A DNA stretch of 64,000 bases from Planctomycetota bacterium (GCA_044222185.1 JBGANV010000007.1:192001-256000), one strand, 5' to 3'; numbered from the stretch's first letter, positions 44,018-61,380 are shown. Numbers and translations: made by a program. The notes: a model not told the origin generated them from the sequence alone.

Positions 44018-44156
44018 GGCCGTCGATTCCTTACGGCGGACCCCTGAGTCGGGCCGATAAGTTCCTCAGAAGTGCAGCCTGGCGGCGCCGCTTTGTCGGG
44101 TGTCGTCGGAAGCGCGCTTCGTGTCGACCCCTGATGAACATGCAGAAGGCAGCCGC

Positions 44157-45779
44157 ATGAGGGTTCTGGTCGCGGAGGACGTTCCGGCGCAGCGCATGAT
44201 CCTCGCCCGCCTCATCAAGAGTGCGGGCCACGAGGTCGCGCAGGCCGAGAACGGCGAAGTCGCACTTCGGCTCTTCTCCGAGTCGGAGTTCGAGTGCGTC
44301 GTCACCGACTGGCAGATGCCCGTGATCGACGGCATCGAACTATGCCGGCGCATCCGCGAGATCCCCAAGAACCATCACGTCCACCTCATGATGGTCACCG
44401 GCGCCGACGGAAACGAAGACGTGCTCCAGGCGCTCGCCGCTGGGGCGGACGACTTCATCCGCAAACCGATCAACTACGCCGAGATCGCCGCGCGTCTGAA
44501 GAACGCCCAGCGCCAGCAGGAGATCTACGCGACCCTGGCGCGCAACTTCGCCGAACAGCTCGCACTGAAAGAGAGCCTGGGTTCGAAGGACGCCGTCTAC
44601 CGCGACCTGTTCGCCAAGACCCCCGATCCCATGTTGAGCCTGGACGATGCCTGGCAGATCCAGGAGGCGAACGAGGCGTGGTGCCGCTCGTTCGGCTGGA
44701 GGCCGGACGACGTCCGAGGGCGTGCGCTCGATCAGTTCGTCGTCGAGGCGTCGAAGAAAGACCTCTCGATCTTCCAGCAGCGCATGACGGCCGGACCCGA
44801 TGCGCCCGAAGTGGCGCTCAACCTGAAACACCGGCAAAGCGAGGTGCGCGAAGTCCAGGTCAGCGGTTCCCGCATGATCGGGACGGCCGACGTTCCGACG
44901 CGCGTGATCCTCCGCATGCTCGACGTGACCGAGTCGCGTCGCGTCCAGGCGCAGGTTCTCGAGCACGAGAAGATGGCCATGGTGGGCGGGCTCGTGAACG
45001 GCGTGGTGCAGGAGGTCAACGGGCCGTTGTCCATGGTCTGGTCCACGCTCGGCGCGCTCGACAAGTACGGCGCCCGGCTCATCGAGACGTTGAACGGCTA
45101 TCAGCCGCTCGAGGAGATCGTGGCGCAGGCGGACGTCGAGGGTGCGGCCGACGCGCTCGAGGCCGTGCGCCGTCGCCACCGCTCCCTGAAGATCGACTTC
45201 ATCGCGACGGACTTTTCCCACCTCATCAGTCGGGGGCGCGAGCTCACCGATCGTGCCCGCAGGATCATCTCCGACATCGGGACCGTGACCCGGTCGGACG
45301 ACGAGATGGCGGAAACGGATCTCGTGGACGCGATCCAATCTGCCGTGGGCCTGTCGCAAGCGATCCTGCGCGACCGGATCGAACTGGTGCGGGAGCTTCC
45401 AGCTTCGGCGAAGATTCGCGGCAACCACGCCCGTCTCACGCAGGTCTTCACGAATCTCATCAAGAACGCGGTCGATGCCATCCCGGCCGGCCGTGCGGGA
45501 CGCGTGAAGGTCGCCGTCACGATCGACGACACCCGAGCCCACGCAACCGTTGCCGACGACGGCGCCGGCATCGCGCCGGAGAACATGAGCCGCATCTTCG
45601 ACCCGTTCTTCACGACGAAGAAGTCGGGCGAAGGCGTCGGCCTGGGACTCACGGTCGCCTTCAGCATCGTGAAGTCGCACAACGGAACGATCTTCGCTGA
45701 AAGCCCGCCGGGCCTCGGCACCACGTTCCACGTGGAGTTCCCCGCGCTCGCTCCCGTTCCGGCGGTCGCGGCGACGTAG
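44157..45779 (+). CDS. Receiver-PAS-histidine kinase-like protein lacking the phosphoacceptor His
   Basis: REC domain (AED, TDWQMP, KP), PAS domain, H-box read as GVVQEVNGPL, and intact N/G1/F/G2 boxes. Confidence 0.9.
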   Translation: MRVLVAEDVPAQRMILARLIKSAGHEVAQAENGEVALRLFSESEFECVVTDWQMPVIDGIELCRRIREIPKNHHVHLMMVTGADGNEDVLQALAAGADDFIRKPINYAEIAARLKNAQRQQEIYATLARNFAEQLALKESLGSKDAVYRDLFAKTPDPMLSLDDAWQIQEANEAWCRSFGWRPDDVRGRALDQFVVEASKKDLSIFQQRMTAGPDAPEVALNLKHRQSEVREVQVSGSRMIGTADVPTRVILRMLDVTESRRVQAQVLEHEKMAMVGGLVNGVVQEVNGPLSMVWSTLGALDKYGARLIETLNGYQPLEEIVAQADVEGAADALEAVRRRHRSLKIDFIATDFSHLISRGRELTDRARRIISDIGTVTRSDDEMAETDLVDAIQSAVGLSQAILRDRIELVRELPASAKIRGNHARLTQVFTNLIKNAVDAIPAGRAGRVKVAVTIDDTRAHATVADDGAGIAPENMSRIFDPFFTTKKSGEGVGLGLTVAFSIVKSHNGTIFAESPPGLGTTFHVEFPALAPVPAVAAT

Positions 45780-45789
45780 AGACGGCGCT

Positions 45790-47490
45790 TCACACCTTCC
45801 GCGACACGTCGAAGCGCGCGACGGCGACTCCGCCGGCGAAGAGAAGGCCCAGATCCAGGGCGGCGAATGCGGCCAGGCTCGCGGCGGTCGCCACGGCCCG
45901 GGCGAACGACACCGACGCGTCGGGATTCGACGGCTTCGCCAGGTGGAAGGTCAGGTAGTAGGTCGACGCCACGACGCCGGCGGCGATGCCGATGGCGATC
46001 ACGCGCAGGAACAACAGCAGCAACGATCGCCCCGCGACGTTCAATCCAGCTTCGGATCCGGGAGTGATGCGGATCGGCATGAACAAGAAGACGATGTTGT
46101 CGACGGCCATGACGCAGAACGTGAATGCAGGGACCGCGAGGGCGATGGGGATTCCCTGATCGAGCGGCAGGTTGCCGAGAAGCAGCAGGCCCACCAGTCC
46201 CACGAGGAGGATCCCGGAGATCACGATCCACTCCGGAGCCAGGATCGCTGCGAAGACGGTTCGCGCCGTCACGGGCCACGTCTTGATCCGCTCCATGCGG
46301 TCCAGCTCTTCGCGGAAATCGAACCGCATTCCGAACGAGAGGTAGAGCGTCCCGAGCAGGACGAAGATCAACGCGCGGGCGAGGGAGCTTTGCTCCTTGT
46401 GGGAATCGAGTCCGTTCGTGATCAGCGTGATCACGACCATGATCATGCAGGTGAACACGAGCGTTCGACGGGACTTCCGCACGAGAGACGCGATCTTCGT
46501 CCATGCGATCGCGCCGAAGGGGCCGCGCCCCGCGAGCCACGGCACGCGCCAGCGCGCGCTTCCGGCGGATGCCTGAGCACCGGCCGCGCCGCCACCGGAC
46601 TTCTGTGCGCGGCGGATCCGTTCGGCGATGTTCGCTGCCGTTTCCAGCGAGAGCTCCCGATAGTCGATCGGAAGGCGCGCGGTCAGCTCCGCGAGCGCCA
46701 CGCCGATCGCGATCGCGATGGCGAACCACACGCCGAATTCCGCCAGGGTCGTGGCGGTCATGGCTCGGATCCACGGCTCGAAGGGGAGCGTCAGCGCGCG
46801 GATCACCGGGTGGTCCGCGTATTGGAACACGTCCGGCGCCGGCGCGGCGCCCGGATCGGCGACGGGAGCGATTGGGCGACCCGTGAACGACTGGAAGGCC
46901 AGGCGCAGCAACGCCAGGATCGCGAGGAGCGACACGATCTGCAGGACCCGCTTGGTCCACCCTTCGAATCGCTTCTTCTCGAGGGATCCGAGGACGATGG
47001 CCAGCGTCTGGCCGAAGATGCCGAGCGTCTGCATCGCGGCGAAGGCACCCAGGAATCCGAAGGCGACGACCGGTGCCCGTTGCGCGGCCATCATGCCGAA
47101 GATCAGCCCGCCGACGATCCCGCGGCCGAACGCGGCCATGAGGCGATAGCGGACGATGTCGCTGCGGTCGACGGGCGCCGCGAACAACACCTCGATCTCC
47201 TCCTTCGGCAGGTAGAGACCACGAAACCCGGTGGCACCGATCACGCTGAGCACCGTGAGTGCGAGGCCGCCGATGCGGGCCATCGCAGAAAGATCGTTGG
47301 GGCTGTATTGGAACTTGCCCCGAACGCAGGATCCGACGGCGACGGACGTCACCCAGAGACCGAATGCGATCAGACCCAGAATCGTGAACGCCGCGCCCGA
47401 CGGCGTCTTGGCGCGGCGCCATTGCCGGCGAAATCGACCGCGGAGCTTCAGGCGTGCGAGTCGGCGGAGTGCGGGCGTCGGGAGGATCAC
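45790..47490 (-). CDS. Putative ABC exporter permease
   Basis: About 12 TM helices, EIEVLFAAPV motif, and GTG overlapping the stop of the ABC ATPase gene. Confidence 0.82.
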   Translation of the reverse strand: MILPTPALRRLARLKLRGRFRRQWRRAKTPSGAAFTILGLIAFGLWVTSVAVGSCVRGKFQYSPNDLSAMARIGGLALTVLSVIGATGFRGLYLPKEEIEVLFAAPVDRSDIVRYRLMAAFGRGIVGGLIFGMMAAQRAPVVAFGFLGAFAAMQTLGIFGQTLAIVLGSLEKKRFEGWTKRVLQIVSLLAILALLRLAFQSFTGRPIAPVADPGAAPAPDVFQYADHPVIRALTLPFEPWIRAMTATTLAEFGVWFAIAIAIGVALAELTARLPIDYRELSLETAANIAERIRRAQKSGGGAAGAQASAGSARWRVPWLAGRGPFGAIAWTKIASLVRKSRRTLVFTCMIMVVITLITNGLDSHKEQSSLARALIFVLLGTLYLSFGMRFDFREELDRMERIKTWPVTARTVFAAILAPEWIVISGILLVGLVGLLLLGNLPLDQGIPIALAVPAFTFCVMAVDNIVFLFMPIRITPGSEAGLNVAGRSLLLLFLRVIAIGIAAGVVASTYYLTFHLAKPSNPDASVSFARAVATAASLAAFAALDLGLLFAGGVAVARFDVSRKV

Positions 47491-48320
47491 GAGCCTGGAG
47501 CTCCATCGCTCGGGGGCACTGCGGCCGCGGGCTGCGGCGGCGCCACATCGGCCCGGTTCCCGTTGGACGTTGCCGCGAAGAAGATCTCGTTCAGGCTGGA
47601 CCCCGGAGCGGCCGTGATCGTGCGGCGGGCGTCGTCGAGCGTACCCGCGAACACCTTGCGGCCTCGATCGAGGATCACGATCTCGTGGCAGAGCTCCTGG
47701 ACCAGATCCAGGAGGTGTGACGAGAGGATGATCGCCGCGCCCGTGGCGCAGAGAGCTCGCAGGGCGTCCTTTGCCCGCACGATGCCGAGCGGATCGAGGC
47801 CCGTGAGCGGCTCGTCGAGCAGCACGAGCTTGGGGTGCGTGATGAAGGCGCAGCACAACGCGAGCTTCTGGCGCATGCCTCGGCTCAGTTCTCCGCCGAG
47901 TGCATCCTTCTTCTCGACGAGCTCGAACGTTCGCAGGAGTTCGTCGGCGCGCGTCCTCCAATCCGCTACGCCGTAGAGGTGCGCGGTGAACTCCATGTGC
48001 TCGAGGACCGTCAACGTGTCGAACGGTTGGGGGTCGTCGGGAACCCAGGCCAGGCACGATTTCGCCTGACGATCCTGGTGGGCGATGTCGAAGCCGCCGA
48101 CGAGGATCCGGCCTTGCTTGATCGGGAGGATGCCGCAGATGGACCGCAGGGTCGTCGTCTTGCCGGCGCCGTTCGGGCCGACCAGGCCGACGATCGTGCC
48201 CGGTCTGACGACGAACGAGAGGTCCCGGACGGCCTCCGCGTTGTCGTAGGCCTTCGAGAATGCCTCGACGACGAGGACCGGCGCCGCGCCCGGTGGAACT
48301 CCTGGGGACACTGGATCCAT
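47487..48320 (-). CDS. ABC transporter ATP-binding protein
   Basis: GPNGAGKTT, LSRGMRQKL, LLDEPLTGLDP and SSH motifs. Confidence 0.95.
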   Translation of the reverse strand: MDPVSPGVPPGAAPVLVVEAFSKAYDNAEAVRDLSFVVRPGTIVGLVGPNGAGKTTTLRSICGILPIKQGRILVGGFDIAHQDRQAKSCLAWVPDDPQPFDTLTVLEHMEFTAHLYGVADWRTRADELLRTFELVEKKDALGGELSRGMRQKLALCCAFITHPKLVLLDEPLTGLDPLGIVRAKDALRALCATGAAIILSSHLLDLVQELCHEIVILDRGRKVFAGTLDDARRTITAAPGSSLNEIFFAATSNGNRADVAPPQPAAAVPPSDGAPGS

Positions 48321-48395: not shown

Positions 48396-49607
48396 TCAGC
48401 CTCGGATCCACTTCGTGACCGGCTGGGCGAGGAATTGATCGAGCGGAACCCCCTCGCTTCCGACCTGGAGGGCGCGCGTGGTCTTGAACGCTGCGCGGAA
48501 TGCCGCGGTTCCACGGTGCGAACGCAGGGGGCGGCGGCTCTTCACTTCGATGGCGACCACCCGCGGCCCGGCCTTCGCGATGAAGTCGACTTCGTCGTTG
48601 CCGTCGCGCCAGTAGAAGAGTTCGATGTCGCCCGAGGCTGCGGCATTCGCGAGATGGGCTCCTACGGCCGATTCCACGAGGTGACCCCAGAACTCGTGAT
48701 CAGCGCGCGCCTCCTGAAATTGCAGGTGCGAGGCGGCCGTCACGAGGGCTGTGTTGTACACCTGAAGCTTGGGGCTCGAGGCCCGCTGCCGGGCCGCATC
48801 GCCGGCGTACTTGTGCAGACCACAGACCATCCCGGCGGCGGAGAGCAGCTCCAGGTAATGGGCGAGGGTCGTGGTGTTGCCGGCGTCGACGAGTTGGCCC
48901 AGCATCTTCGTGTACGAGAGGATCTGGCCCGAATATCGACAGGCAAGGTCGAGCAGGCGCCGCAGCAAGGCCGGCTTGTCCACGCGAGTCAGAAGCAGGA
49001 CGTCGCGCGCGACGGAGGTCTCGATCAGCGAATCGGCGATGTACCGCGCCCAGCGCGCCGGTTCGCGAATGAGCGGGGCGGCCCCCGGGTAGCCGCCGAA
49101 GAACACGTACTCATCCAAGGACCACCCGAAAGCTGCGGCCATCTCACTGAACGACCAGTGCGGGAAATGGACGAGTTCGAACCGGCCCGCCAGGCTCTCG
49201 CTGAGTCCGCTCGCGATGAGGAGGGGCGCCGAACCGAGCAGGACGACCTTGATCCGTCGCCCCTCGCGCGTGTCTTCATCCCAAAGGCGCTTCGTCGTCT
49301 CGGACCAACCGGGCACTTTCTGGATCTCATCGAGGACGAGGATCGACATCTTGCGGGGGGCATCGGCGGCTTGCGCTCTTGCGGCCTCCCATTGCGTCGA
49401 AATCCAATCCGCACCGCGGAGTGTCGGTTCATCGGCGCTGGCGAACCGGGCTGGGAGGCGGCTTGCACGGACGACGGACTGCACCGCGGTCGTCTTGCCG
49501 ACCTGTCGCGGCCCGACGACGGCCTGGATGAACCGACGGGGTTCGCGGAGGCGTTTCGCCAGAATGCTGGCGTACGGTCGCTGGAAATCGGCGGATCGTT
49601 TACTCAT
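48396..49607 (-). CDS. AAA_14 ATPase with a DUF4143 / PD-(D/E)xK-like C-terminus
   Basis: GPRQVGKTT, LDEIQ, LLGS, ESLAGR, GGYP, ESAV and YWRD...EVDF...IEVK motifs. Confidence 0.92.
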   Translation of the reverse strand: MSKRSADFQRPYASILAKRLREPRRFIQAVVGPRQVGKTTAVQSVVRASRLPARFASADEPTLRGADWISTQWEAARAQAADAPRKMSILVLDEIQKVPGWSETTKRLWDEDTREGRRIKVVLLGSAPLLIASGLSESLAGRFELVHFPHWSFSEMAAAFGWSLDEYVFFGGYPGAAPLIREPARWARYIADSLIETSVARDVLLLTRVDKPALLRRLLDLACRYSGQILSYTKMLGQLVDAGNTTTLAHYLELLSAAGMVCGLHKYAGDAARQRASSPKLQVYNTALVTAASHLQFQEARADHEFWGHLVESAVGAHLANAAASGDIELFYWRDGNDEVDFIAKAGPRVVAIEVKSRRPLRSHRGTAAFRAAFKTTRALQVGSEGVPLDQFLAQPVTKWIRG

Positions 49608-49706: not shown

Positions 49707-50768
49707 CTACGGCCTGCGGCGCGCCAGGATGTCGGGGCGCTTGCAGACGGTCGGCCAGTCGGGGATCGCCGTCAGCACCTCACCCGTCGAGAGGATCGTG
49801 TCTTCCGACTTGGTCCCCGCGATCGACGGGTTCCACGCCACGAGCTGGTTCTCGACGACGACGCCCTGCGTCGACGGCGTGACGCAGAAGTCGCGGCACT
49901 CGTACCCCAGCGGACCCCCCTGGTGGTGGAGACGCCACTCGGCGCCGAATCCCTCGGTGCGATAGATGCGCATGCCGACGGAGAGGATCTCGGACCACTT
50001 GGCGCCGGGCTTCGTCGCACCGATGAGCGTGGAGTCGACGGCGCACACGGCCTCGTGCTTGCGCTTCAGCGCGGCCGGCAGCTTGCCGAAGAACACGAGC
50101 CGTGTCATCGCCACGATCAACCCATGACGCTGGGCGCAGACGACCAGCATCAGCATGCGGTCCACCTTGTTCTGGGTGGGAATCGGATGGCGGAACTTCA
50201 CGATGCGATCGTCGGCGGCGACGAGCAAGACGGGCGCGTGGATGGCACGCGCGCGGAGCTTGGCGGAGAAGCTGGCCGCGACTTCGTGCTCGGTCAGTCC
50301 AGGCTTCAGCTCCTTGAGCTCTTTCTCCATCAGCTCGGCGCAGTCCCGGCCGAGTGCGCGCGCCCGTTCGATCTCCAGCGGCGTCAACGAAGCGCGGAGC
50401 GCGGTGATGGCGGCAGAGTCGTCGAGCCCGGGTCGGGTCTTGCTGGGCTTGCGGTCGACGTCCGGAAAGTCCGTCGCGTACTCGTGCGGCTGTGGCTTTC
50501 GGTCGTGCCACCATTCGGCGGCTTCGAACGTCCAGCCGTCCTTGAACTCCTCCGCTTCGAGCCGCGGCGCCTCGATCACGTTGGTGATGACGACGCGCTT
50601 GCGTGGAGTCCACAACACGGACGCGATTCCGGTCGCCTGGGTCGTGTCGCAGTGGACGTCGGCTCCGTCCGCGATCCACGCGATGTTCGACCGTCGCCGC
50701 AGGAGAACGCCGTCGACACCGAGGTCTCGGCACAACTTGCGAAGTCTCTTCTCCTTCTCGACGTCCAT
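49707..50768 (-). CDS. M24 (Xaa-Pro peptidase fold) protein with a degenerate metal site
   Basis: Creatinase-like N-terminus, TEHEVAA, FRHPIPT, HHQGGPLGY, WNPS and KSEDT motifs. Confidence 0.8.
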   Translation of the reverse strand: MDVEKEKRLRKLCRDLGVDGVLLRRRSNIAWIADGADVHCDTTQATGIASVLWTPRKRVVITNVIEAPRLEAEEFKDGWTFEAAEWWHDRKPQPHEYATDFPDVDRKPSKTRPGLDDSAAITALRASLTPLEIERARALGRDCAELMEKELKELKPGLTEHEVAASFSAKLRARAIHAPVLLVAADDRIVKFRHPIPTQNKVDRMLMLVVCAQRHGLIVAMTRLVFFGKLPAALKRKHEAVCAVDSTLIGATKPGAKWSEILSVGMRIYRTEGFGAEWRLHHQGGPLGYECRDFCVTPSTQGVVVENQLVAWNPSIAGTKSEDTILSTGEVLTAIPDWPTVCKRPDILARRRP

Positions 50769-50775
50769 GCTCACC

Positions 50776-52113
50776 TCAGACGAGCGACCGCGCGGCGGAA
50801 TAGAGCCGGCGAAAGCGCTCGTATTCCGCATCGTAGCTGCGCCGAGGCTGCGTGACTTCGGTCTCCTTCACGAGCCGGTCCGTCGCTTCCTCGATGGAAG
50901 GGAAGATTCCGGCCCCGACCGCGGCCAGGATCGCCGACCCGAAAGCGGCACCTTCGTCACTCGTGTTGACGGAAATCACGGGGACTCCCAGCACATCCGC
51001 CACGATCTGGCGCCACTGCGGGTTCTTCATGCCGCCGCCGGTCACGCGCACCGAATCACCCCCGGCGATCTGGTGCGCGTCGCGGAGGGCGAACGCCGTC
51101 CCTTCGAGAACGGCTCGGATGAAGTGCGATCGGTCGTGGTCCGTGGAAATCCCGGCGAACATCCCCCGGACCGCCGTGTCGGCGTGGGGCGTTCGTTCAC
51201 CGACGAGGTAGGGCGCAAACAGGAGCCCCTTGGATGACTCGGCGATCGGCGCATCTGCGACGGCGACGCCGAAGAGTCGGGCCACCCAGTCGAACGCCCG
51301 GGTGCCCGTCAGCATGCAACCGATCTGGTAGAAGCGATTCGGAACGGCGTGACTGAACGTGTGGACGCGCATGTCGAAGTCGACGACGGGTCGGTCGTGC
51401 ACGACGACGAGGACGTTCGAGGTGCCCATGCTCACCATGGCTTGCCCGTTGCGCACGACACCGATGCCGACGGCCGCGGCGGCGTTGTCGGCGGCACCGC
51501 CGACGATGGGGATGCCCTTCCATCGTCCCGCGACCTCGATCGACGTGCAGGGGGGAGGAAAGAGGTCCCGGGCCAGTCCGACCTTCGCGATGACCGTGTC
51601 GGACCAGGCGCCCCGCCCGACGTCCCAGCAGAGCGTGCTCGCGGCGTCGCTGATCTCCTGGCGCATCTCACCCGTCAGACGCCAGCGGACGTAGTCCTTG
51701 CAGATGAGGATCGGGCCGAGTGACTTCCGCCACAGGAGGTGGGGTAGCGTGAAACCGGCGAACGGTCGATTCGCGACGGTCGTACGCAACGTGTCGAGGC
51801 CCACGCGCTGGACGATCTCATCGCACTCGGCCTCGGCTCGACCGTCACACCAAAGGATGGCGCGATCACCCGTGCCGACGCACACCTCCGAGTGCATCAT
51901 TCCGTCGAGCCCGATGGCGTCCGCTGGCCCGAGTTCCTCCAGGATCGCGAGCGTCGCCGCAACCCAGTCCTCCGGGTCCTGTTCGGCATGGACGCCCTCG
52001 CCGTACAGCGGATAGGAGCGCCGCGCCGATTTCAGGATCCGCCCGTCGGGGAACGAGACGAGCACGCCCTTCGCACCGGAAGTTCCCAGATCGATGCCGA
52101 TCGTCTTCGACAT
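50776..52113 (-). CDS. xylB: FGGY carbohydrate kinase, xylulokinase-like
   Basis: IGIDLGTSGAK, EQDPEDW, GMMHS, ILWCDGR, SDAAST, PYLVGERTPH, RAVLEG and TGGG motifs. Confidence 0.85.
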   Translation of the reverse strand: MSKTIGIDLGTSGAKGVLVSFPDGRILKSARRSYPLYGEGVHAEQDPEDWVAATLAILEELGPADAIGLDGMMHSEVCVGTGDRAILWCDGRAEAECDEIVQRVGLDTLRTTVANRPFAGFTLPHLLWRKSLGPILICKDYVRWRLTGEMRQEISDAASTLCWDVGRGAWSDTVIAKVGLARDLFPPPCTSIEVAGRWKGIPIVGGAADNAAAAVGIGVVRNGQAMVSMGTSNVLVVVHDRPVVDFDMRVHTFSHAVPNRFYQIGCMLTGTRAFDWVARLFGVAVADAPIAESSKGLLFAPYLVGERTPHADTAVRGMFAGISTDHDRSHFIRAVLEGTAFALRDAHQIAGGDSVRVTGGGMKNPQWRQIVADVLGVPVISVNTSDEGAAFGSAILAAVGAGIFPSIEEATDRLVKETEVTQPRRSYDAEYERFRRLYSAARSLV

Positions 52114-52125
52114 GCGAGCACTTTC

Positions 52126-53949
52126 TCAGAGCTCGTGGATCACGCCAGAGCAGCGGGGGACGTCGACGTGAATCACGCGGTGGTCGACTTCGATCTTCGC
52201 GGTGACCGGTGCGCCGGGATTCGTCACGATCAGCGCGGTGCCCCGCCGGCTCACCTGGACGCCGGCCGTGAGCGAGAGCGCAGGGATCGTCATGCGATGA
52301 AATCGGTGGACCGCGAGGATCGCATCCCGGTTCGGGCGGCATCCCAGCACGAGCAATGAGCCTTGGCCCCGTCGCTCGAAGTAGCCCGTGACGTACCGCC
52401 GCCCCACGGCGACGTGCATGAGTCGCTCCATGTCGGCGTCGGTTCTCCACGCGAGCTGCGTGGCGACGACGGGGGACCCGGGGGGCGAGCGATGGTCGAA
52501 GACGGGGCCGTTCGCGATGAACGCCTCGGTCGAGCCGGGTAGCACGACCTTCAGGTTCTCGGCGCCCGGGTGGCTCGTTCCATCCGGCGTCGCGCACCCG
52601 GCCGGAAGTCGTTGGAACGCGACGACGTGCCCGCCAGCTTCCGCGTACCGCCAGAGGTGGGACGCGTCCGCGAGCTCTCCAGCGACGAACAGCAACGGTG
52701 GCGCGCTGCCACCGATCGGTTCATCCACATCCACGAAGTCGTATTCGACGCCCATCTCCTGGAGCGTTTCGAAGAGGGGGTCGTCCGCGGGGCGCTTCTC
52801 GATCTGCGCGACCTGGTGCCAGTGCCAGGACCACGTCACACCAAACGAGACTTGGGGCGGCGGCGCGTCGCGGAGTTCGCGGAACGCTGCCGAGGCCTCG
52901 CGGAACGCGTCACCGAGTTCGGGGTGGATCACGCCGCGCTCGTTGATCGGCGCGCCGGTCCAGTTGTCGCGGTTCGCGAGCATGTACCAGTTCCACCCGC
53001 GCACGCCGCTCTGCAGCGCCGTCATCGCCGTCAAGCGGTAATGGTCAGGCGAATACTCGGGGGGCGCGCCGTGCCACACTCCCGCGCCGAACTCGGCGAT
53101 GTAGGGGAAGTCGGTGACGCACCGGAGCAGCCGGAGGCGCTCGCGGAAGTAGCGCAGGTCCGTGCGACACTCGTTCGAGGGGTACGGGTCGATGCCGTAG
53201 AAGTCGGCGATCGATGCGAGGTCCCGCCAGTGCTGTGCGTCGACGCCCGGCCACGTGTTCAGGAGGATGGGCACCGTGCAGCCATTCGCGCGGAATGCCT
53301 CGACGACCCAGCGCGCATAGTCCGTGGCGAGGTCGTAGCGGTACCGGCAACCGTCGCGCAGGCGTGGATCGTCGCGAAGCGGTCCGATGGGAGCGAGCGC
53401 GGGGATCGCCTCGGCGAACGCGGCGTAGTTCGTGTTCCATGCGGCGTTCATCGCTGCCGGTGTCCCGTACCTCCGCTCGAGCCATGCGGCGAACCCCTGG
53501 TCTTCGCCGTAGATGTACGGCATGGGGTCGATCTCGTTGTCGGCCTGGACGGCGACGATGAGCGAGCCGAGGTGTGGCCGCAGGACTTCCATGACGGCGT
53601 CGATCCACGCGGCGGCCTTGCGGCGGAACTCGGGATGGTGCTTGCCGAACGGGACCGCGTGATCGGGGATGCCCAGGTTGCGCCACTCGGCGTAGAAGAA
53701 CGGCCCCGGGCGCGCGAGCACGCGAAGTCGTCTCGCACGGATCTCGGCCAGGAACGCCTGGAGGAGCGCGAAGTCGAAGACGCCTTCACGAACCTCGTGC
53801 AGGTCCCACATGACGTACATCCCGATGACCTCGGCACCGAGCGTCCGTGCCGAATCGAGGATTGCGCCCCAGTGCTTCGCCTGAACGCGACCGTAGTGGA
53901 TCTCGCCGCCGACCATGGGCGGGAGCGACGCGACGTTGGCTTTCTTCAT
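52126..53949 (-). CDS. Glycoside hydrolase family 35 (beta-galactosidase-like)
   Basis: GGEIHY, YVMWDLHE..EGVFDF, RPGPF..AEW..LGIP, QADNE and AEFGAG motifs. Confidence 0.85.
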   Translation of the reverse strand: MKKANVASLPPMVGGEIHYGRVQAKHWGAILDSARTLGAEVIGMYVMWDLHEVREGVFDFALLQAFLAEIRARRLRVLARPGPFFYAEWRNLGIPDHAVPFGKHHPEFRRKAAAWIDAVMEVLRPHLGSLIVAVQADNEIDPMPYIYGEDQGFAAWLERRYGTPAAMNAAWNTNYAAFAEAIPALAPIGPLRDDPRLRDGCRYRYDLATDYARWVVEAFRANGCTVPILLNTWPGVDAQHWRDLASIADFYGIDPYPSNECRTDLRYFRERLRLLRCVTDFPYIAEFGAGVWHGAPPEYSPDHYRLTAMTALQSGVRGWNWYMLANRDNWTGAPINERGVIHPELGDAFREASAAFRELRDAPPPQVSFGVTWSWHWHQVAQIEKRPADDPLFETLQEMGVEYDFVDVDEPIGGSAPPLLFVAGELADASHLWRYAEAGGHVVAFQRLPAGCATPDGTSHPGAENLKVVLPGSTEAFIANGPVFDHRSPPGSPVVATQLAWRTDADMERLMHVAVGRRYVTGYFERRGQGSLLVLGCRPNRDAILAVHRFHRMTIPALSLTAGVQVSRRGTALIVTNPGAPVTAKIEVDHRVIHVDVPRCSGVIHEL

Positions 53950-54457
53950 GGGGTTTCCGCGCGGCGCGTTCTACGCGAGGGGCACGGAAGCGAAAGCGGG
54001 GTGCCGGAGAAGACGGGGCGTGAAAAAAGTCGCGCCTGGCCGTCGGTCGCATGATCTGCACGACATCATGGTCGTGCTGCGAGACGTCGGATGCGCCGGG
54101 TGCCGGAGCTGCTTCACGGTCGTCGCGGGCGTGTTGGACGGGCCAGGAGGGCGCGTCGCGCAAATCGGGGCAAGGGCTCCGACCGTCCGCGGATCGAACG
54201 GTGACGTGTCATACGTGTCAGGCTCGGACCGGGCGCATGGTCGACGTCACTTCGCGTGATCGGCCACCGGCAAGGCCGGCAGTCGCGGCGACGGCCAAGC
54301 GCACGGCAGGATTCTAATCGCGTTCATCGCGTGACGCGAAAAAAAACTCGGGTGGATCTGTGCGAAGGCGAGGCGAACGAGGCTCAGCTCGAACTGGCGT
54401 CGGCAAACTACGCATCGCGCGGTCGACAACGTGCGCACCTGTGCGGAGAATGCCGCC

Positions 54458-56113
54458 ATGCTCAAGACCTTCACGGCATCGATGGTTGCGTTCCTGTGCC
54501 TCGTCGGCGATCTGCTCGGGCAGCAAGAACGCCCGACTGACGCACTTCTTACACGCGAGATGATCGCGGCGCCGCTGCGGTTCCTCTCCCACGATCTGCT
54601 CGAAGGCCGAGGCGTCGCCAGCCGCGGCGACGAGTTGGCGCGGCTCTACATCGCGACGCAGCTCGAGTCGTGGGGCTATCAGCCAGGCGCGGGCTCGGAT
54701 TTCGTCGTGGCCGCCAGCGGCGCGCAGGCGGACCTCGGATACGTGCAGCCCGTGCCGATCATCGGGATCACGTCCGTGATCGATGCCGGCCTCACGGCGA
54801 ATGGTCCCAACGGCAAGCTCGAGTTCGCCGCGCCCTCGGACTACACGGGGTACGCGTGGCAGCCGAAGGCGGTCACTTCCTGGAGTGACGCCGAACTCGT
54901 TTTCGTCGGGTACGGCATCACCGCGCCCGAGCAGAAATGGGACGATTTCAAGGACGTGGACGTGAAGGGGAAGGTCCTGGTCGTGATGAACAACGACCCG
55001 TCGTCGGACCCCGCGCTCTTCGCGGGCAAGACGCGCCTCTACTACGGTCGCTGGTCGTATAAATACGAGGAAGCGTCCCGCCGCGGCGCCCTCGGCGCGA
55101 TCATCATCCACACGGAGCCCTCCGCGGGGTATCCGTTCCAGGTGATCCAGTCGAAGCACGGCACGGAGTACTTCTGGCTGCCGTTCGAGAAGGACGAGTC
55201 GCTCCAGATCGCGGCGTGGATGGCGGACGATGCCGTCAAACGCATGGTGCAGCTCGCGGGTCACGATCTGGACGCCCTGCGCGCGAAGGCCGAGTCGCGC
55301 GACTTCCGTCCCGTGCCGCTCGGGATCAAGGCGACGTTGGGACTCAAGAACGCCGTGCGTGAACTGCGATCCGGGAACGTCGTCGCACAGATGACGGGGA
55401 GCGATCCCAAGCTCAAGGACGAATACGTCGTCGTCACTGCGCACCACGACCATCTGGGGCTCGGGCCGAAGAAGAACAACGACGCGATCTACAACGGCGC
55501 GCTCGACAACGCGTCGGGGTGCTCCATGATGCTCGCCCTGGCGCGAGCCATGACCACACCGACGCTGCGTCCCAAGCGGTCGATCATTTTCGCGTCGGTG
55601 ACGGGGGAGGAGTCCGGCCTCCTCGGTTCGGATTACTTCGCGCGGCATCCCACGGTTCCCGTCAAGCAGATCGTCGCCAATCTGAACATCGACGGGATCA
55701 ACATCTGGGGGCGGACGAAGGATCTTCAACTCGTCGGGTACGGGAAGAGCAGCCTCGCGAAGGTCGCGGCCGAGGTGGCAGCAGCCCGAGGGCGCACGGT
55801 CGTCCCCGACAGCGAGCCCGAGAAGGGGCTCTTCTATCGGTCCGACCATTTCTCGTTGGCGAAGGTCGGGATCCCCTCCGTGTACTTCAAGGCGGGGCAG
55901 GACTTCCTCGAAGATGCGGACGTGAAGCGGCGGGTGCAGCTCGCTTACACGGCAACGCACTATCACCAACCGAGCGATGAGTTCGATCGGAGGTGGCGAT
56001 TGGACGGCGCCGTCGAGGACGCGCGACTGATGCTCGATCTGCTCGTCCGCATGGCGAACGATGCGACGGCGCCGGCGTGGACTCCCGGTGACGAGTTCGA
56101 GAAAGCCCGTTGA
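54458..56113 (+). CDS. M28 family metallopeptidase with a PA domain, exported
   Basis: Signal peptide, LEGRG, VFVGYGI, TAHHDHLG, NGALDNASG, GEESGLLGS, RSDH and YHQPSD motifs. Confidence 0.93.
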   Translation: MLKTFTASMVAFLCLVGDLLGQQERPTDALLTREMIAAPLRFLSHDLLEGRGVASRGDELARLYIATQLESWGYQPGAGSDFVVAASGAQADLGYVQPVPIIGITSVIDAGLTANGPNGKLEFAAPSDYTGYAWQPKAVTSWSDAELVFVGYGITAPEQKWDDFKDVDVKGKVLVVMNNDPSSDPALFAGKTRLYYGRWSYKYEEASRRGALGAIIIHTEPSAGYPFQVIQSKHGTEYFWLPFEKDESLQIAAWMADDAVKRMVQLAGHDLDALRAKAESRDFRPVPLGIKATLGLKNAVRELRSGNVVAQMTGSDPKLKDEYVVVTAHHDHLGLGPKKNNDAIYNGALDNASGCSMMLALARAMTTPTLRPKRSIIFASVTGEESGLLGSDYFARHPTVPVKQIVANLNIDGINIWGRTKDLQLVGYGKSSLAKVAAEVAAARGRTVVPDSEPEKGLFYRSDHFSLAKVGIPSVYFKAGQDFLEDADVKRRVQLAYTATHYHQPSDEFDRRWRLDGAVEDARLMLDLLVRMANDATAPAWTPGDEFEKAR

Positions 56114-56369: not shown

Positions 56370-58133
56370 GTGAAGACCTTCCGTCTCATGTTCTGCATGG
56401 CCGCCTTCGTTGGCGCCATGCTCGCGCAAGGCCCGACGATCGCGACGCACGTCGTGATCAACGAGTTCTCATACGACGATGAGGGCACGGACGATCGCGA
56501 GTTCGTCGAGCTCTACAACCCGCTTGCGACGCCGGTCGACATCTCGGGGTGGGTGCTCCAATCGGTCGATGAGGCGTACCCGACCGACAACAACGCCGAC
56601 TACACCGTTCCGGGCGCACCAGGCAGCAACACCACGGTGATTCCGCCGTTCGGCTACTACACCTTCGGCTCCGGCACGGTCACGCCGGCCGTGAACCAGG
56701 TCGTCGGCGCGACGAACCTCTGGGAGAACGACGCCGAGGCGATGATCCTCCGCGACGGCGCGAACAACATCGTCGACACGGTCACCTACGAAGGGAACAA
56801 GATCGGCCAGGGTCAGTGGGCCACGTTCCCGACGCAGTTCATCGAAGGCCAGGCGATCTGGGGGAACAGCACGTTCAACATCACCCCCACGCCCCAATCC
56901 TGGTCGCGGTGGAACGATGGCTACGACACCGACAACAACGGGAACGACTTCGGCGGCATGGCGATGACGCCGGGTACCTCGAACCACCTCGCCATTCCGA
57001 ATGCTCTGCCGTTCTTCAACAACTTCGATGCGCTCGCACCCGAGACGGCCGTCCCAGGCTTCATCGACTCGTTCGTGAACGCGCGCGCGATCGATCCGAC
57101 CGTGACGTCGGCGACGAACCCGAACGTCATCGCGGCCTCGCCGGCTGGCGGCTACGCCATGACGGTTTACGACCCGACAGGCGGCGGCAACACGGCGACG
57201 TTGAACACGACGCCGGCCCTCGACTTCCGGCTCGAGTGCTACGTCTACGTCTACGCGACGGGCACGGCGCGCATCGCGACCGACCAGGAGTATTGGGGCA
57301 TCGGAGTCCGCGGCACGGTCGACCCGACGTTCTACAACTTCCCGATCATCGGGCAGACGGGCCAGAACAACGCCAGCAGCAACACGGGCATCGCGTGGGA
57401 GTACGCGTACGTGAATAGCCAGGCGACCATGCGCCTCGTCGACGAGAACGACGGTGGTGACGACGAGACCGTGCTCCTCACGATCCCGATCACGGCCGGC
57501 GTGAACGACGGCTGGCAGCGCCTGCGCCTCGAAGTGACCGGCAACCAGATCGACGCGGTCTTCGGCGGCACCTACGGGTCGATCCTCGACGGCACGCGCT
57601 TCACGGGCTTCACGTCGACGAACGGTCTGGGCATGGCGTACCTCGGCTACCGCGAGGCCATCGCGACGAATGCGTTCAACCGCGCCGTCACCGTCGACAA
57701 CCTCAGCGTCATCGTTTCGCCGCTCACGACGGACGTCGATTTCATCAGCGTCGCGACCGGCGGCACGGTGAACTTCGGCCTCCACGGCGGGGCGGCGAAT
57801 GCGGGTCTCGCGTACATCCTCCTCGCCTCGGCGACGGGCGGCACGCCGGGCTTCGTCCTCGATGCGTCCCAGAACTTCACGGTCGTCCCGGTCGTTCCGG
57901 ACGCCGTGACGGACCTGGGCCTCCAGCTTGCGAACGTCAGCCCGCTCTTCGGCAACTTCATCTCGAACCTGGATGCGTCGGGTGAAGGCTCGGCGTTCAG
58001 CGCGCTGCCGCCGCTGCCGAGTGGCCTCGCCGGCCTCACGATTCACTTCGGCTACGTGGTGCTCAGCACGTTCTCGCCGTTCCAGTTGAATGGCTTCTCG
58101 AGCAACTCGCGCGCGATCACGCTCACGCCTTGA
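56370..58133 (+). CDS. Secreted lamin-tail-domain protein with a lectin-like middle and C-terminal beta domain
   Basis: Signal peptide and VVINEF...DREFVELYN...VDISGW (lamin tail domain). Strongly biased codon usage. Confidence 0.85.
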   Translation: MKTFRLMFCMAAFVGAMLAQGPTIATHVVINEFSYDDEGTDDREFVELYNPLATPVDISGWVLQSVDEAYPTDNNADYTVPGAPGSNTTVIPPFGYYTFGSGTVTPAVNQVVGATNLWENDAEAMILRDGANNIVDTVTYEGNKIGQGQWATFPTQFIEGQAIWGNSTFNITPTPQSWSRWNDGYDTDNNGNDFGGMAMTPGTSNHLAIPNALPFFNNFDALAPETAVPGFIDSFVNARAIDPTVTSATNPNVIAASPAGGYAMTVYDPTGGGNTATLNTTPALDFRLECYVYVYATGTARIATDQEYWGIGVRGTVDPTFYNFPIIGQTGQNNASSNTGIAWEYAYVNSQATMRLVDENDGGDDETVLLTIPITAGVNDGWQRLRLEVTGNQIDAVFGGTYGSILDGTRFTGFTSTNGLGMAYLGYREAIATNAFNRAVTVDNLSVIVSPLTTDVDFISVATGGTVNFGLHGGAANAGLAYILLASATGGTPGFVLDASQNFTVVPVVPDAVTDLGLQLANVSPLFGNFISNLDASGEGSAFSALPPLPSGLAGLTIHFGYVVLSTFSPFQLNGFSSNSRAITLTP

Positions 58134-59277: not shown

Positions 59278-61380
59278 ATGCGCGCATGGCACATCTGCCT
59301 GGTGGCACTCATCGTCTTCGTGGTTGCGTGGTGGCCCGGTGCACGACCGGACGATCACGCGCGTGTACCACGTGAGGTATTGGCGCGCGTGGAGGGCCAG
59401 GCCCCACTCGATTCGCGGCCAGGACGCGCCCGCACGGGCGTCGAGGCGGCGCTCCGCATACGTGATGAAGACGGCGCGCCGATCTCGGACGCGTCAGTCG
59501 TCGCGCGGTCCGAGTACCTCGAGTTTGCGCGGGCTCGTTCGGATCCTGATGGTCGCGCCCGCCTGCCCTGGGGCGGACTTGCGTTGATCCGCGTCGAGCG
59601 GGAAGGCTTCGTTCCCTGGACCGGCATCGTCAAGAACGACGATGACAGCGCAGTCGTCGCGTTGCGCCGACCGGCGTCGCTGCAGATCGATTTCGTGAGC
59701 GAAGCGGGAGAGCCCGTGGGCGGCATCGGCACCGAGCTCCTCGTCGACGGACAGGAGCATCCAGGGCCCGAAGCTCCTTCGTTGCCGCGGTCGTTCGCCC
59801 CGCTCGTTCAGACCCTGCTGGACCCCGCGCCCGTTCCGCCGTCGGATGAGGGCAGCGCTGTCGTGCGGCTCGCTCGCATCCTGTGCCGGAGGGAGAACGC
59901 CGACGCGCGGGTCGTCGAGATCTCGCCGTTCCTGGCGATCGACCCGGCTCAGATCTCCACGACGAACGGGTCCGTGAGCTGGAGCGTGCTGCCGTCGCGC
60001 TCGTCCATGCGGTGGGGCGTCACGTCTGGCCACGGAGTCGAGGTCGAGCCGCGCGCTCCGGCCGATGCACGCGGCGGGACCGAGACCGGACGATTCATGA
60101 GTGGGGCGCCGGGAACCGTGTCAGCGGCCTTCACGCTCGAACCGGGGGAACGGCGCCGCTACCTCTGCCTTGCCCATACCGCCACGCGCGTCCTTGGGCG
60201 GGTTCTCAGCCATGGGCAACCGCCGAGCCGCGCGTGTGTCGTGAAGCTGTTCGACGTGGAGAAACAGACGGCTCCCGATGGCACCTGGATCTTGGACGTA
60301 CGCCAGGAAGCCGAGCGCGGAACGGATGCTGACGGCTCTTTCGTCTTCGTAGGCGTGCGGCCCGGGCGCAAGGTCCTCCGCGGATGGTGGCGCGACGGTG
60401 ACGATCTGAACTTCGTCGGCACGGGCTTCACGCTCGAGCCGACCGAAACCAAGGACCTGGGCGTGCTCGAGGTCGGAGAGAGCGCCGTCGTGGAGTGTGA
60501 GGTCCGGCTGCGCGATCTTGCTGGTGGTGATGTACCGCGGGCGCTCGTCGCCAACTCGGATGTCGGCGCTCTCGTGGCGTTGAGTGGGATGGGCGACGAC
60601 GTGAGCCCCGTGGGCGCGGCGTTCCATGTGGAGGTCGAACGCGTCGTTCGACTTCACGGCCTTTCGCCTGGGAAGTGGCGTCTCAGTGCCGGCCCGCCCG
60701 TCACGTGGCCCGATCTCAAAGACACATGGCGTGGCGTCGAGCGCGACTCCGAGTCCACGTTCGTGACTCCCGGGGCGGGTACGCAGCGACTCGTGCTCAC
60801 GGTGTGCAAGGCGGGGTGGCTCAAGCTGCGTTGTCACTTCCCGGTGGATACTCGTTTCGCCGCGACGGCGACACTGATCCCGTCGACCGGAGGCCTGTCG
60901 AGCCGTTTCAACATCCCGCGGCGAGACGCCGCGGAGGCCGTGATCGAGCAAGAGGTGTTCGCGGGTCCATACACGATCCTGATTTCTCCGGCGCAGATCG
61001 ACCCGGCGACGGCCGATGTGAACTGGTTCGCGCTGCGTGACGTCGTCGTGGCACCGGGCGGGCGGACGGAGTGTGACACGGTCTTCGAGCGTGGCGTCGA
61101 GGTGACGGGCGTCGTGCGGACGACGGACGATCGGCCGGCTGCGCGATCGATCGTCGCACTTTCGGCAGTCGGCTTCGACGAAGCGGCGCGGCCGACGTGG
61201 CCTTATCAGGTGTTGACCGACGGCGAGGGTCGCTATCGGATCGCGGGGTTGATCCCGCACGCCACGTTCCGCGTGCGCACGAGCGAGCAGGTGATCTCCA
61301 CGGGTGCGGCGGGAGGCGCGCAATCGATCGATCTGCGGCTCCGCCCACGGGGAATCGTCCCGGTGGGGAACCGGCGATGA
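59278..61380 (+). CDS. Membrane-anchored protein with carboxypeptidase-regulatory-like (prealbumin/Cna-B-like) beta domains
   Basis: GGGAGG RBS, N-terminal TM helix, and repeated DEDGAPI..A.V, TDADGSFVFVGVRPG and TDGEGRYRIAGL motifs. Confidence 0.78.
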   Translation: MRAWHICLVALIVFVVAWWPGARPDDHARVPREVLARVEGQAPLDSRPGRARTGVEAALRIRDEDGAPISDASVVARSEYLEFARARSDPDGRARLPWGGLALIRVEREGFVPWTGIVKNDDDSAVVALRRPASLQIDFVSEAGEPVGGIGTELLVDGQEHPGPEAPSLPRSFAPLVQTLLDPAPVPPSDEGSAVVRLARILCRRENADARVVEISPFLAIDPAQISTTNGSVSWSVLPSRSSMRWGVTSGHGVEVEPRAPADARGGTETGRFMSGAPGTVSAAFTLEPGERRRYLCLAHTATRVLGRVLSHGQPPSRACVVKLFDVEKQTAPDGTWILDVRQEAERGTDADGSFVFVGVRPGRKVLRGWWRDGDDLNFVGTGFTLEPTETKDLGVLEVGESAVVECEVRLRDLAGGDVPRALVANSDVGALVALSGMGDDVSPVGAAFHVEVERVVRLHGLSPGKWRLSAGPPVTWPDLKDTWRGVERDSESTFVTPGAGTQRLVLTVCKAGWLKLRCHFPVDTRFAATATLIPSTGGLSSRFNIPRRDAAEAVIEQEVFAGPYTILISPAQIDPATADVNWFALRDVVVAPGGRTECDTVFERGVEVTGVVRTTDDRPAARSIVALSAVGFDEAARPTWPYQVLTDGEGRYRIAGLIPHATFRVRTSEQVISTGAAGGAQSIDLRLRPRGIVPVGNRR

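Follow-up and report, generated by a model that had tools for sequence, protein, structure and literature searches.

A metal-ligand-free branch of the M24 fold that recurs in sugar-catabolism loci, seen from a planctomycete glycosidase-xylulokinase-M24 gene unit

What does an M24-fold protein do as the third member of a tight gene unit whose other two products are a predicted glycosidase and a xylulokinase-type kinase? The question is raised by a 64,000-nucleotide stretch of the genome of a Planctomycetota bacterium (GCA_044222185.1, JBGANV010000007.1:192001-256000), which as a whole is called the window here, and for which an earlier reading made from the sequence alone (the sequence-only reading) had proposed that the M24 protein was repurposed for carbohydrate chemistry. 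In this work we find that, judging by the alignments, this protein belongs to a large family in which four of the five metal ligands of M24 peptidases are replaced, and that genes of this family recur in sugar loci of independent lineages. The three genes are tightly spaced and co-oriented, as had been described: the gaps are 12 nt between glycosidase and kinase (52114-52125) and 7 nt between kinase and M24 gene (50769-50775), the latter when the M24 gene starts at 50768. This start, M22 of the longest open reading frame (ORF), is likely the true one, and the resulting protein is matched at 100% identity in a protein collection. The features are as follows.

52126-53949, minus strand: predicted GH35/GH42-like clan GH-A glycosidase P0001, 607 aa, first gene of the unit (Pfam, PDB match).
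50776-52113, minus strand: FGGY kinase of xylulokinase type, P0002, 445 aa (FGGY_N, FGGY_C, TIGR01312).
49707-50768, minus strand: metal-ligand-free M24B-derived protein P0004, 353 aa; the longest ORF, P0003 (374 aa), reaches 50831 (Pfam M24, alignments, AF2).
53950-54430, minus strand: intergenic stretch between the unit and the M28 peptidase gene that diverges from it on the upstream side, where the promoter of the unit presumably lies (sequence reading).

That the third gene encodes an M24-fold protein was borne out by three lines of evidence. P0003 matches Pfam PF00557 (Peptidase_M24) with 46.7 bits (cut-off 23) and weakly matches Creatinase_N, the AF2 model of the M24 protein has a pLDDT of 95.3, and its best Foldseek matches are small prolidases (probability 1.00, TM 0.73-0.78), with ectoine hydrolase, creatinase and Spt16 ranking lower; the Pfam score, the model and the structural matches agree on a pita-bread domain after Creatinase_N. 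An ESM Atlas search with the protein returned generic M24 clusters only. When a profile of the family was compared with the PDB, prolidases scored between 1e-17 and 1e-8 (best 1.5e-17) and the ectoine hydrolase DoeA 0.12, while creatinase was unlisted at E<=10; prolidases are thus the nearer relatives, which speaks at the sequence level against a protein of creatinase or ectoine hydrolase type. On these comparisons the family is derived from the small two-domain prolidases (M24B).

Prolidases and aminopeptidase P require five metal ligands, Asp, Asp, His, Glu and Glu. In the alignment of the window protein to solved prolidases the first Asp falls in a gap beside a Cys, the second is an Ala, the Glu of EPG is an Asn (WNPS), the metal His of GHGVG is a Gly, and the last Glu is retained (KSED). 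The sequence-only reading had rightly seen that both Asp ligands are lost, at VVCAQRHGLIVAMTR, and that the EPG Glu has become WNPS, and the strings VVCAQRHGLIVAMTR, HHQGG, WNPS and KSEDT are all found in the translation. It had also taken HHQGG and KSEDT for remaining ligands. The Glu of KSEDT is indeed kept, but the HH of HHQGG pairs with a non-ligand His four residues upstream of the metal His, so that one ligand in five is left, one fewer than had been claimed. Since four of the five are swapped, the protein is not expected to be a dinuclear metallopeptidase of the classical kind, and as predicted from its ligand states it cannot have classical M24 metallopeptidase activity. Other active-site residues can be traced: in weak pairwise alignments the equivalents of H243 and H350 of Escherichia coli aminopeptidase P, which with H361 are its auxiliary active-site His, pair with H194 and H281 of P0004, and the third with the invariant R292.

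The same replacements are fixed throughout the family. In 42 aligned members spanning 31-70% identity, the first Asp is Cys in 41, and in all 42 the second Asp is Ala, Ser, Cys or Asn, the metal His is Gly, the EPG Glu is Asn and the last Glu is kept. A catalytic Cys at the first Asp position was considered and dropped, the residue being Gly in Pantoea, Thr in Natrinema and Val in one further member (L001). The ligands have given way to new fixed motifs, RHPxPT, HHQGG, WNPS and GxKxED, and to a set of invariant residues (R69, E73, E160, R188, H194, R223, Y269, Q283, R292, N313, K320 and E322, with the tryptophans W31, W86 and W312); in all, about 20 polar or aromatic positions in or near what was the active site do not vary between bacterial and archaeal members, whose overall identity is 30-40%. 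The motifs are the same in homologues from Thermus, Pantoea, Deinococcus, two cyanobacteria (of which Gloeothece alone is in the second alignment), haloarchaea and Acidobacteriota. Because the replacements are fixed family-wide they do not reflect local decay of the window copy, and the window protein is, to judge from these alignments, a member of a large conserved family rather than a decayed copy.

The family profile collects 1016 representative clusters (50% identity) at E<=1e-30, and a scan with NCBIfam found no model that names the family. In even samples it is carried by about 8% of genomes in two phyla (15 of 200 Planctomycetota and 19 of 250 other Acidobacteriota), and single-protein scans of genome and metagenome contig collections gave one distant locus each. 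A eukaryotic occurrence was also seen: protein P0394 of Phytophthora fragariae (963 aa) joins ankyrin repeats to a family-like M24 domain 38% identical to the window protein.

Genes of the family recur in sugar loci of independent lineages. A tblastn search of annotated plasmids returned 37 records with the family. On plasmid pVV8 of Thermus thermophilus HB8 the order is xylF-permease-ATPase-ROK regulator-xylA-xylB-M24 (4-nt overlap)-Gfo/Idh/MocA-SDR, flanked by insertion sequence elements, and pTB1 of T. brockianus has the same order as far as Gfo/Idh/MocA, no SDR gene being listed there. Pantoea megaplasmids carry MFS-GMC oxidoreductase-M24-SDR, and Deinococcus peraridilitoris has GntR-aldehyde dehydrogenase-M24 near a sugar ABC transporter, a fucose isomerase and a PfkB kinase. 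In Nostoc the ends of malQ and the M24 gene overlap, in two haloarchaea the gene lies amid arabinofuranosidases and sugar ABC genes, and the Gloeothece and Natrinema loci have uninformative neighbours. A low-GC planctomycete, G188, has LacI-GH4-M24-GH4-ROK kinase-sugar ABC. Of 20 fetched places in Acidobacteriota, 10 have next to the M24 gene a glycosidase cluster like GH63 and mannosylglycerate hydrolase (MGH1), 9 a cluster of Na:solute symporters and 4 a galactokinase; the arrangements include GH63-like-M24-symporter and, in four to five places, SDR-M24-MFS by KduI, a galactarate/altronate-type (GD_AH) dehydratase, GH43 and regulators. In addition, one protein is a GH116-M24 fusion with the family motifs intact. 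Tight or overlapping junctions with sugar genes were found in at least five phyla.

In a tree of 49 members the xylB-linked genes stand in two far-apart places, the Thermus pair and a planctomycete clade that also contains members without an adjacent xylB, while the GH63, symporter, SDR-MFS and accD contexts are each clade-specific, as expected for an enzyme family with subfamilies for different sugars. The proposed neighbourhood link to FGGY kinases holds for xylB-M24 pairs in Planctomycetota (planctomycete family f73 and genomes G388 and G255) and in Thermus; overall only a minority of the genes has a sugar kinase as neighbour: at loci not picked via the kinase, a protein scanned or annotated as one was near the M24 gene in 1 of 15 loci of Planctomycetota, 3 of 9 regions on plasmids and, as a galactokinase cluster, 4 of 21 places in Acidobacteriota.

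How does the window unit relate to these contexts? Its kinase is of the type that had been proposed: P0002 has both FGGY domains, FGGY_N and FGGY_C, scores 377.7 bits with TIGR01312 (XylB), slightly below the cut-off of 380.25, is the best XylB-like gene of its genome, and has orthologues beside xylA. The clade of this kinase is rare (3 of 400 other genomes) and conserved, with 68-74% identity in 11 loci and 63% in one, and it is present in 9 of 20 genomes of family f73. Kinase orthologues (63-74% identity) lie directly behind xylA in 9 of 10 loci. By tblastn, xylA is upstream of the kinase in 8 of the 9 f73 loci, and in the three loci scanned, those of G085, G388 and G255, it scores 492-530 bits (TIGR02631 cut-off 447). 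An M24 homologue of 51-55% identity is directly downstream of the kinase in six of the eight f73 loci that could be assessed; of the remaining f73 loci, one ends at a contig edge and two have no M24 gene within 1.5 kb. The M24 gene follows the kinase by 0-7 nt in G388 and G255, and G085, which has the kinase clade and no M24 gene, carries after xylB an unrelated 505-aa ORF (L043:9399-10916) with a weak HEAT-repeat match only. Conversely, the exact glycosidase-kinase-M24 trio was not found again: 16 loci with an M24 homologue, from 15 planctomycete genomes (an even sample of 200) and one Terriglobia metagenome-assembled genome, had no glycosidase and one weak FGGY match. The conserved unit is xylA-xylB-M24, not glycosidase-kinase-M24.

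The window M24 and xylulokinase genes are a tight, probably co-translated pair and a local form of this unit, in which a GH35/42-like glycosidase gene occupies the place of xylA. Indirect evidence is consistent with the pair being kept together in the nearest relatives, as the M24 homologues, of which P0005-P0011 are the closest (63-70% identity), and the kinase homologues have ten longest-contig sizes in common (e.g. 4699, 12148, 12696 and 13758 bp), so that M24 and kinase homologues of equal longest-contig size may share contigs. Compared with genomes of other families, identity is 68-74% for the kinase (63% at one locus) but only 51-55% for the neighbouring M24 protein, and relatives from the window genome's own family do not have this kinase, a pattern suggestive of lateral transfer or of strongly unequal rates in the xylB-M24 pair. 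One close kinase homologue, P0125 (77% identity), is with 691 aa about 245 aa longer than the others; a fusion, an extension or a wrong start call could explain the difference.

The first gene had been assigned to GH35, and P0001 does match the Pfam GH35 model (81.3 bits), over residues 12-170 only; since GH42 also matches (56 bits, residues 23-360), we name it GH35/42-like. Its best PDB match is the beta-galactosidase 8fa5 (2.4e-17), with its NEID aligned to the NEYG (acid/base) region, and it has no obvious signal peptide. P0001 is thus predicted to be a GH35/GH42-like glycosidase. The gene is rare, being found in 2 of 200 other genomes of the phylum, and in those two, G177 and G088, neither a kinase nor an M24 gene comes after the GH35-like orthologue.

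The arrangement of the three genes is real DNA and not an assembly artefact. DNA nearly identical to the stretch is present in activated-sludge, bioreactor and wastewater metagenome runs from several studies, and contigs from four runs of two of these studies were compared with it. The kinase/M24 junction is crossed by X2 record 1 (49765-50838) and X4 record 17 (50606-51076), and the glycosidase/kinase junction by X2 record 4 (52074-53040) and X4 record 19 (52001-52238); as these contigs come from runs of a different study, both junctions being bridged means that the gene order is genuine and no assembly chimera. The G+C content at third codon positions is 0.84-0.88 in all three ORFs, as in coding sequence. 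A scan with promoter and terminator consensus sequences found no minus-strand promoter-like site upstream and no informative site for the operon.

As had been noted, the unit contains no isomerase, and xylA was not found in the genome of the window (93.8% complete) with TIGR02630, TIGR02631 or planctomycete XylA protein queries, an absence that this completeness leaves unproven; as a positive control, TIGR02631 finds xylA in 37 of 200 other genomes of the phylum. The expectation that the family goes with the absence of xylA failed: there is no correlation, xylA being present in 3 of 15 family-positive and 34 of 185 family-negative genomes. The idea of an M24 protein repurposed for sugar chemistry stands in part. 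The recurrent sugar-locus contexts in several lineages and the GH116 fusion are in its favour, but a general replacement of XylA is unsupported, given the orthologues that lie behind xylA.

What chemistry would such a protein perform? That the family is a non-peptidase enzyme of sugar catabolism is a prediction whose chances we regard as evenly poised. It would be an enzyme that assists in breaking down sugars and glycosides in the cytoplasm, using general acid/base catalysis without metal on the hemiacetal or carbonyl of a free sugar; a mutarotase-like anomerase, acting by ring opening, would pass the right form of the sugar to the next enzyme. Mutarotase-type chemistry is put forward here tentatively, from the association of the family with many sugars and with varied first-step enzymes (isomerase, kinases, dehydrogenases, glycosidases and transporters), together with the fixed His, Glu, Arg, Lys, Asn and Gln and several Trp and Tyr. 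Interconversion of anomers is favoured since it is the only accessory role that suits all of these contexts, from isomerase and kinase to dehydrogenase, glycosidase and transporter, for many different sugars, and known mutarotases use metal-free His/Glu catalysis. More broadly, the M24 fold may have been recruited without metals as a carbohydrate-converting enzyme, a new mutarotase, isomerase or keto-glycoside-processing class of bacteria and archaea with sugar-tuned subfamilies, which in this XylA-lacking genome may connect the glycosidase product to the xylulokinase; we hold this proposal at somewhat less than even confidence.

Several observations weigh against this interpretation. Four fixed Arg and one Lys are better suited to an anionic substrate than to a neutral sugar, and if the protein were a mutarotase only, the kinase of the window genome would have no visible source of xylulose. 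The family shows no complementarity with GalM-type mutarotases: PF01263 occurs in 6 of the 15 genomes that carry the family and in 51 of the 185 that do not, and G255 has both. In the unbiased planctomycete sample a clear sugar locus was seen in 1 of 15 (G188); three to four loci follow gap-pgk-rpe-histidine phosphatase-accD, and other neighbours are FKBP, a methyltransferase, M14, ATP synthase delta, a sulfatase, EPSP synthase and FxsA. Protein P0264 (666 aa) joins a prephenate dehydratase (PDT and ACT) to a full family member (residues 304-660). Finally, neighbours were named by scanning one member per BLAST cluster against Pfam, several neighbour clusters (c9, c21, c30 and others) being unnamed, and related genomes are not independent, so that locus counts overstate the number of separate observations.

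In one of the planctomycete genomes (G200, L032) the family gene is directly downstream of the EPSP synthase gene; this neighbour and the prephenate dehydratase fusion may point to a second, aromatic-amino-acid context, or, for P0264, to a fusion made by gene calling. A COX15/CtaA-type cytochrome oxidase assembly gene adjoins the family gene in an acidobacterium (L071:5911-6924) and in the haloarchaeon Natrinema (L079 5970-6848), which may be a coincidence. A role in the pentose phosphate pathway, prompted by nearby rpe and pgl genes, was dropped in view of the low carriage of the family in the two phyla.

The mutarotase proposal has to be weighed against four other readings. One is that the protein is a metal-free hydrolase or lyase whose substrate is an oxidised or modified sugar and which works with neighbouring oxidoreductases; it could be a sugar lactonase, a deglycase, a deacylase, or an enzyme that cleaves or hydrates 3-keto-glycosides in the oxidative cleavage of glycosides. 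This is unlikely, though a serious candidate. It would account for the Gfo/Idh/MocA and SDR genes that flank the gene in T. thermophilus, the Gfo/Idh/MocA gene in T. brockianus, GMC and SDR in Pantoea, SDR in Acidobacteriota and aldehyde dehydrogenase in Deinococcus, as well as for the GH4 enzymes beside the M24 gene in G188, since GH4 enzymes act via a transient keto intermediate. Creatinase and ectoine hydrolase, both among the Foldseek structural neighbours, are moreover non-peptidase M24 enzymes that are hydrolases. This reading is at odds with xylA-xylB-M24 of Planctomycetota, GH63-M24-symporter and malQ-M24, which have no oxidoreductase, with the Haloprofundus locus, which already has a separate SMP-30 lactonase (pgl-like genes are present in two others), and with the variation of the Cys at the first Asp position, the candidate nucleophile. 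A metal-free aldose-ketose isomerase or epimerase that gives the kinase its ketose and replaces XylA here we consider rather unlikely. The window genome has a kinase and no detectable xylA, and glycosidase, kinase and M24 protein would then make a complete short pathway; yet the closest kinase-linked orthologues and the Thermus gene sit right behind a real xylA and are no substitute for it there, family carriage is unrelated to xylA, the galactokinase, MalQ and arabinofuranosidase contexts require no new isomerase, and free-sugar isomerases are mostly metal-dependent. The uronate isomerase UxaC was not found in any of five acidobacterial genomes searched, four with SDR-M24-MFS by the GD_AH-type dehydratase cluster and a fifth without that cluster in the fetched stretch. 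If an isomerase route is used, the isomerase step would be missing there too, but the same loci equally fit an oxidative uronate route that has no need of UxaC, and UxaC absence was set aside as a discriminator as it does not separate the hypotheses.

A non-catalytic pseudo-enzyme with a binding or regulatory function, like Ebp1 or Spt16, or a sugar-gene adjacency without meaning, would be in keeping with the existence of pseudo-peptidases in this fold, with Spt16 among the structural matches, with the heterogeneous planctomycete neighbourhoods and with the prephenate dehydratase and oomycete ankyrin fusions. We regard it as improbable, because the polar and aromatic residues in and near what was the active site do not vary between bacteria and archaea and because tight junctions with sugar genes recur in at least five phyla, with one glycosidase fusion. 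The idea that the protein is still an Xaa-Pro-type peptidase, with a different metal site or a single metal, draws on the prolidases being its closest solved relatives in sequence and fold, and on the last Glu and two active-site His equivalents being kept; it is very improbable indeed, since in all 42 members four of the five ligands are changed to non-binding (Gly, Ala) or poorly metal-binding residues and the genomic context is sugar, not peptide, catabolism.

Upstream of the unit come a 480-nt spacer and the divergent M28 peptidase gene (54431-56113, plus strand), beyond which lie genes for a lamin-tail-domain protein (56370-58133, plus strand) and a CarboxypepD_reg-domain protein (59278-61380, plus strand); no link of these three upstream genes to the M24 finding was seen. 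Downstream the unit is bounded by an AAA_14/DUF4143 ATPase gene, and the downstream side comprises a hybrid receiver-PAS-histidine kinase, a putative ABC exporter pair and this ATPase (44100-45779, plus strand; 45790-48320, minus strand; 48396-49607, minus strand).

In annotations the family goes by 'M24 family metallopeptidase' or 'aminopeptidase P family protein', and some JGI records (e.g. P0006, P0009 and P0012) name it 'antitoxin VapB', which looks like a propagated mis-annotation. A full-text search of one literature library found no paper on this M24 family or on an M24 gene in xyl operons; two works cited in PMC5292009, on pVV8 and on xylose metabolism in Deinococcus-Thermus, and supplements may bear on it. 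What is new here is a metal-free M24 branch tied to carbohydrate catabolism, the fold family itself being known. If the family is a sugar-pathway enzyme, more than 1000 protein clusters are mis-described, a step in the utilisation of xylose, uronates, arabinan and glucosides has been overlooked in several phyla, and the M24 fold has a new kind of chemistry. As a homologue lies in the xylose island of T. thermophilus HB8, a tractable model, the question is directly testable.

Among known systems, the small M24B prolidases (5giu and 5cdl of Deinococcus radiodurans, 1wy2 of Pyrococcus horikoshii, 1pv9 of P. furiosus and 5cnx, E. coli YpdF) are the closest. They have the same length and the same Creatinase_N and pita-bread domains, they are the best matches in sequence (E 1.5e-17) and fold (TM about 0.75), and the window protein keeps their TR motif, their last Glu-Asp and the counterpart of MetAP H79. 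Identity to them is 15-20%, and the family differs from them by its four replaced ligands, its new motifs and its sugar-catabolism context. Creatinase and the ectoine hydrolase DoeA/EutD likewise use the pita-bread fold on small non-peptides (matches 6yo9, 6twk, 7yto, 1kp0 and 1chm), but they are more distant in sequence (DoeA E 0.12), have about 50 extra residues, act on guanidino or amidine substrates and stand in other gene contexts. Ebp1/PA2G4 and the N-terminal domain of Spt16 share an M24 fold without a working metal site; unlike the family described here, which is prokaryotic and prolidase-like with a conserved polar pocket, they are eukaryotic, non-enzymatic and MetAP-like or larger.

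As to gene context, the aldose 1-epimerases (GalM/XylM, PF01263) are also encoded by accessory genes beside isomerases, kinases, dehydrogenases, glycosidases and transporters for many sugars, whereas their fold and sequence are unrelated and there is no phyletic complementarity, so that the functional likeness is hypothetical. The xyl clusters of Thermus pVV8 and pTB1 resemble the window in having a homologue (31-33% identity, motifs intact; WP_014677649.1 in T. thermophilus) directly after xylB. In passages of PMC5292009 on the pTB1 cluster, xylF, xylH, xylR, xylA and xylB are named and the M24 gene is unmentioned. In Thermus the xylB-M24 pair is preceded by xylA and a xylose ABC transporter and followed by oxidoreductase genes, whereas in the window, in a genome where no xylA was found, it is preceded by a GH35/42-like glycosidase gene.

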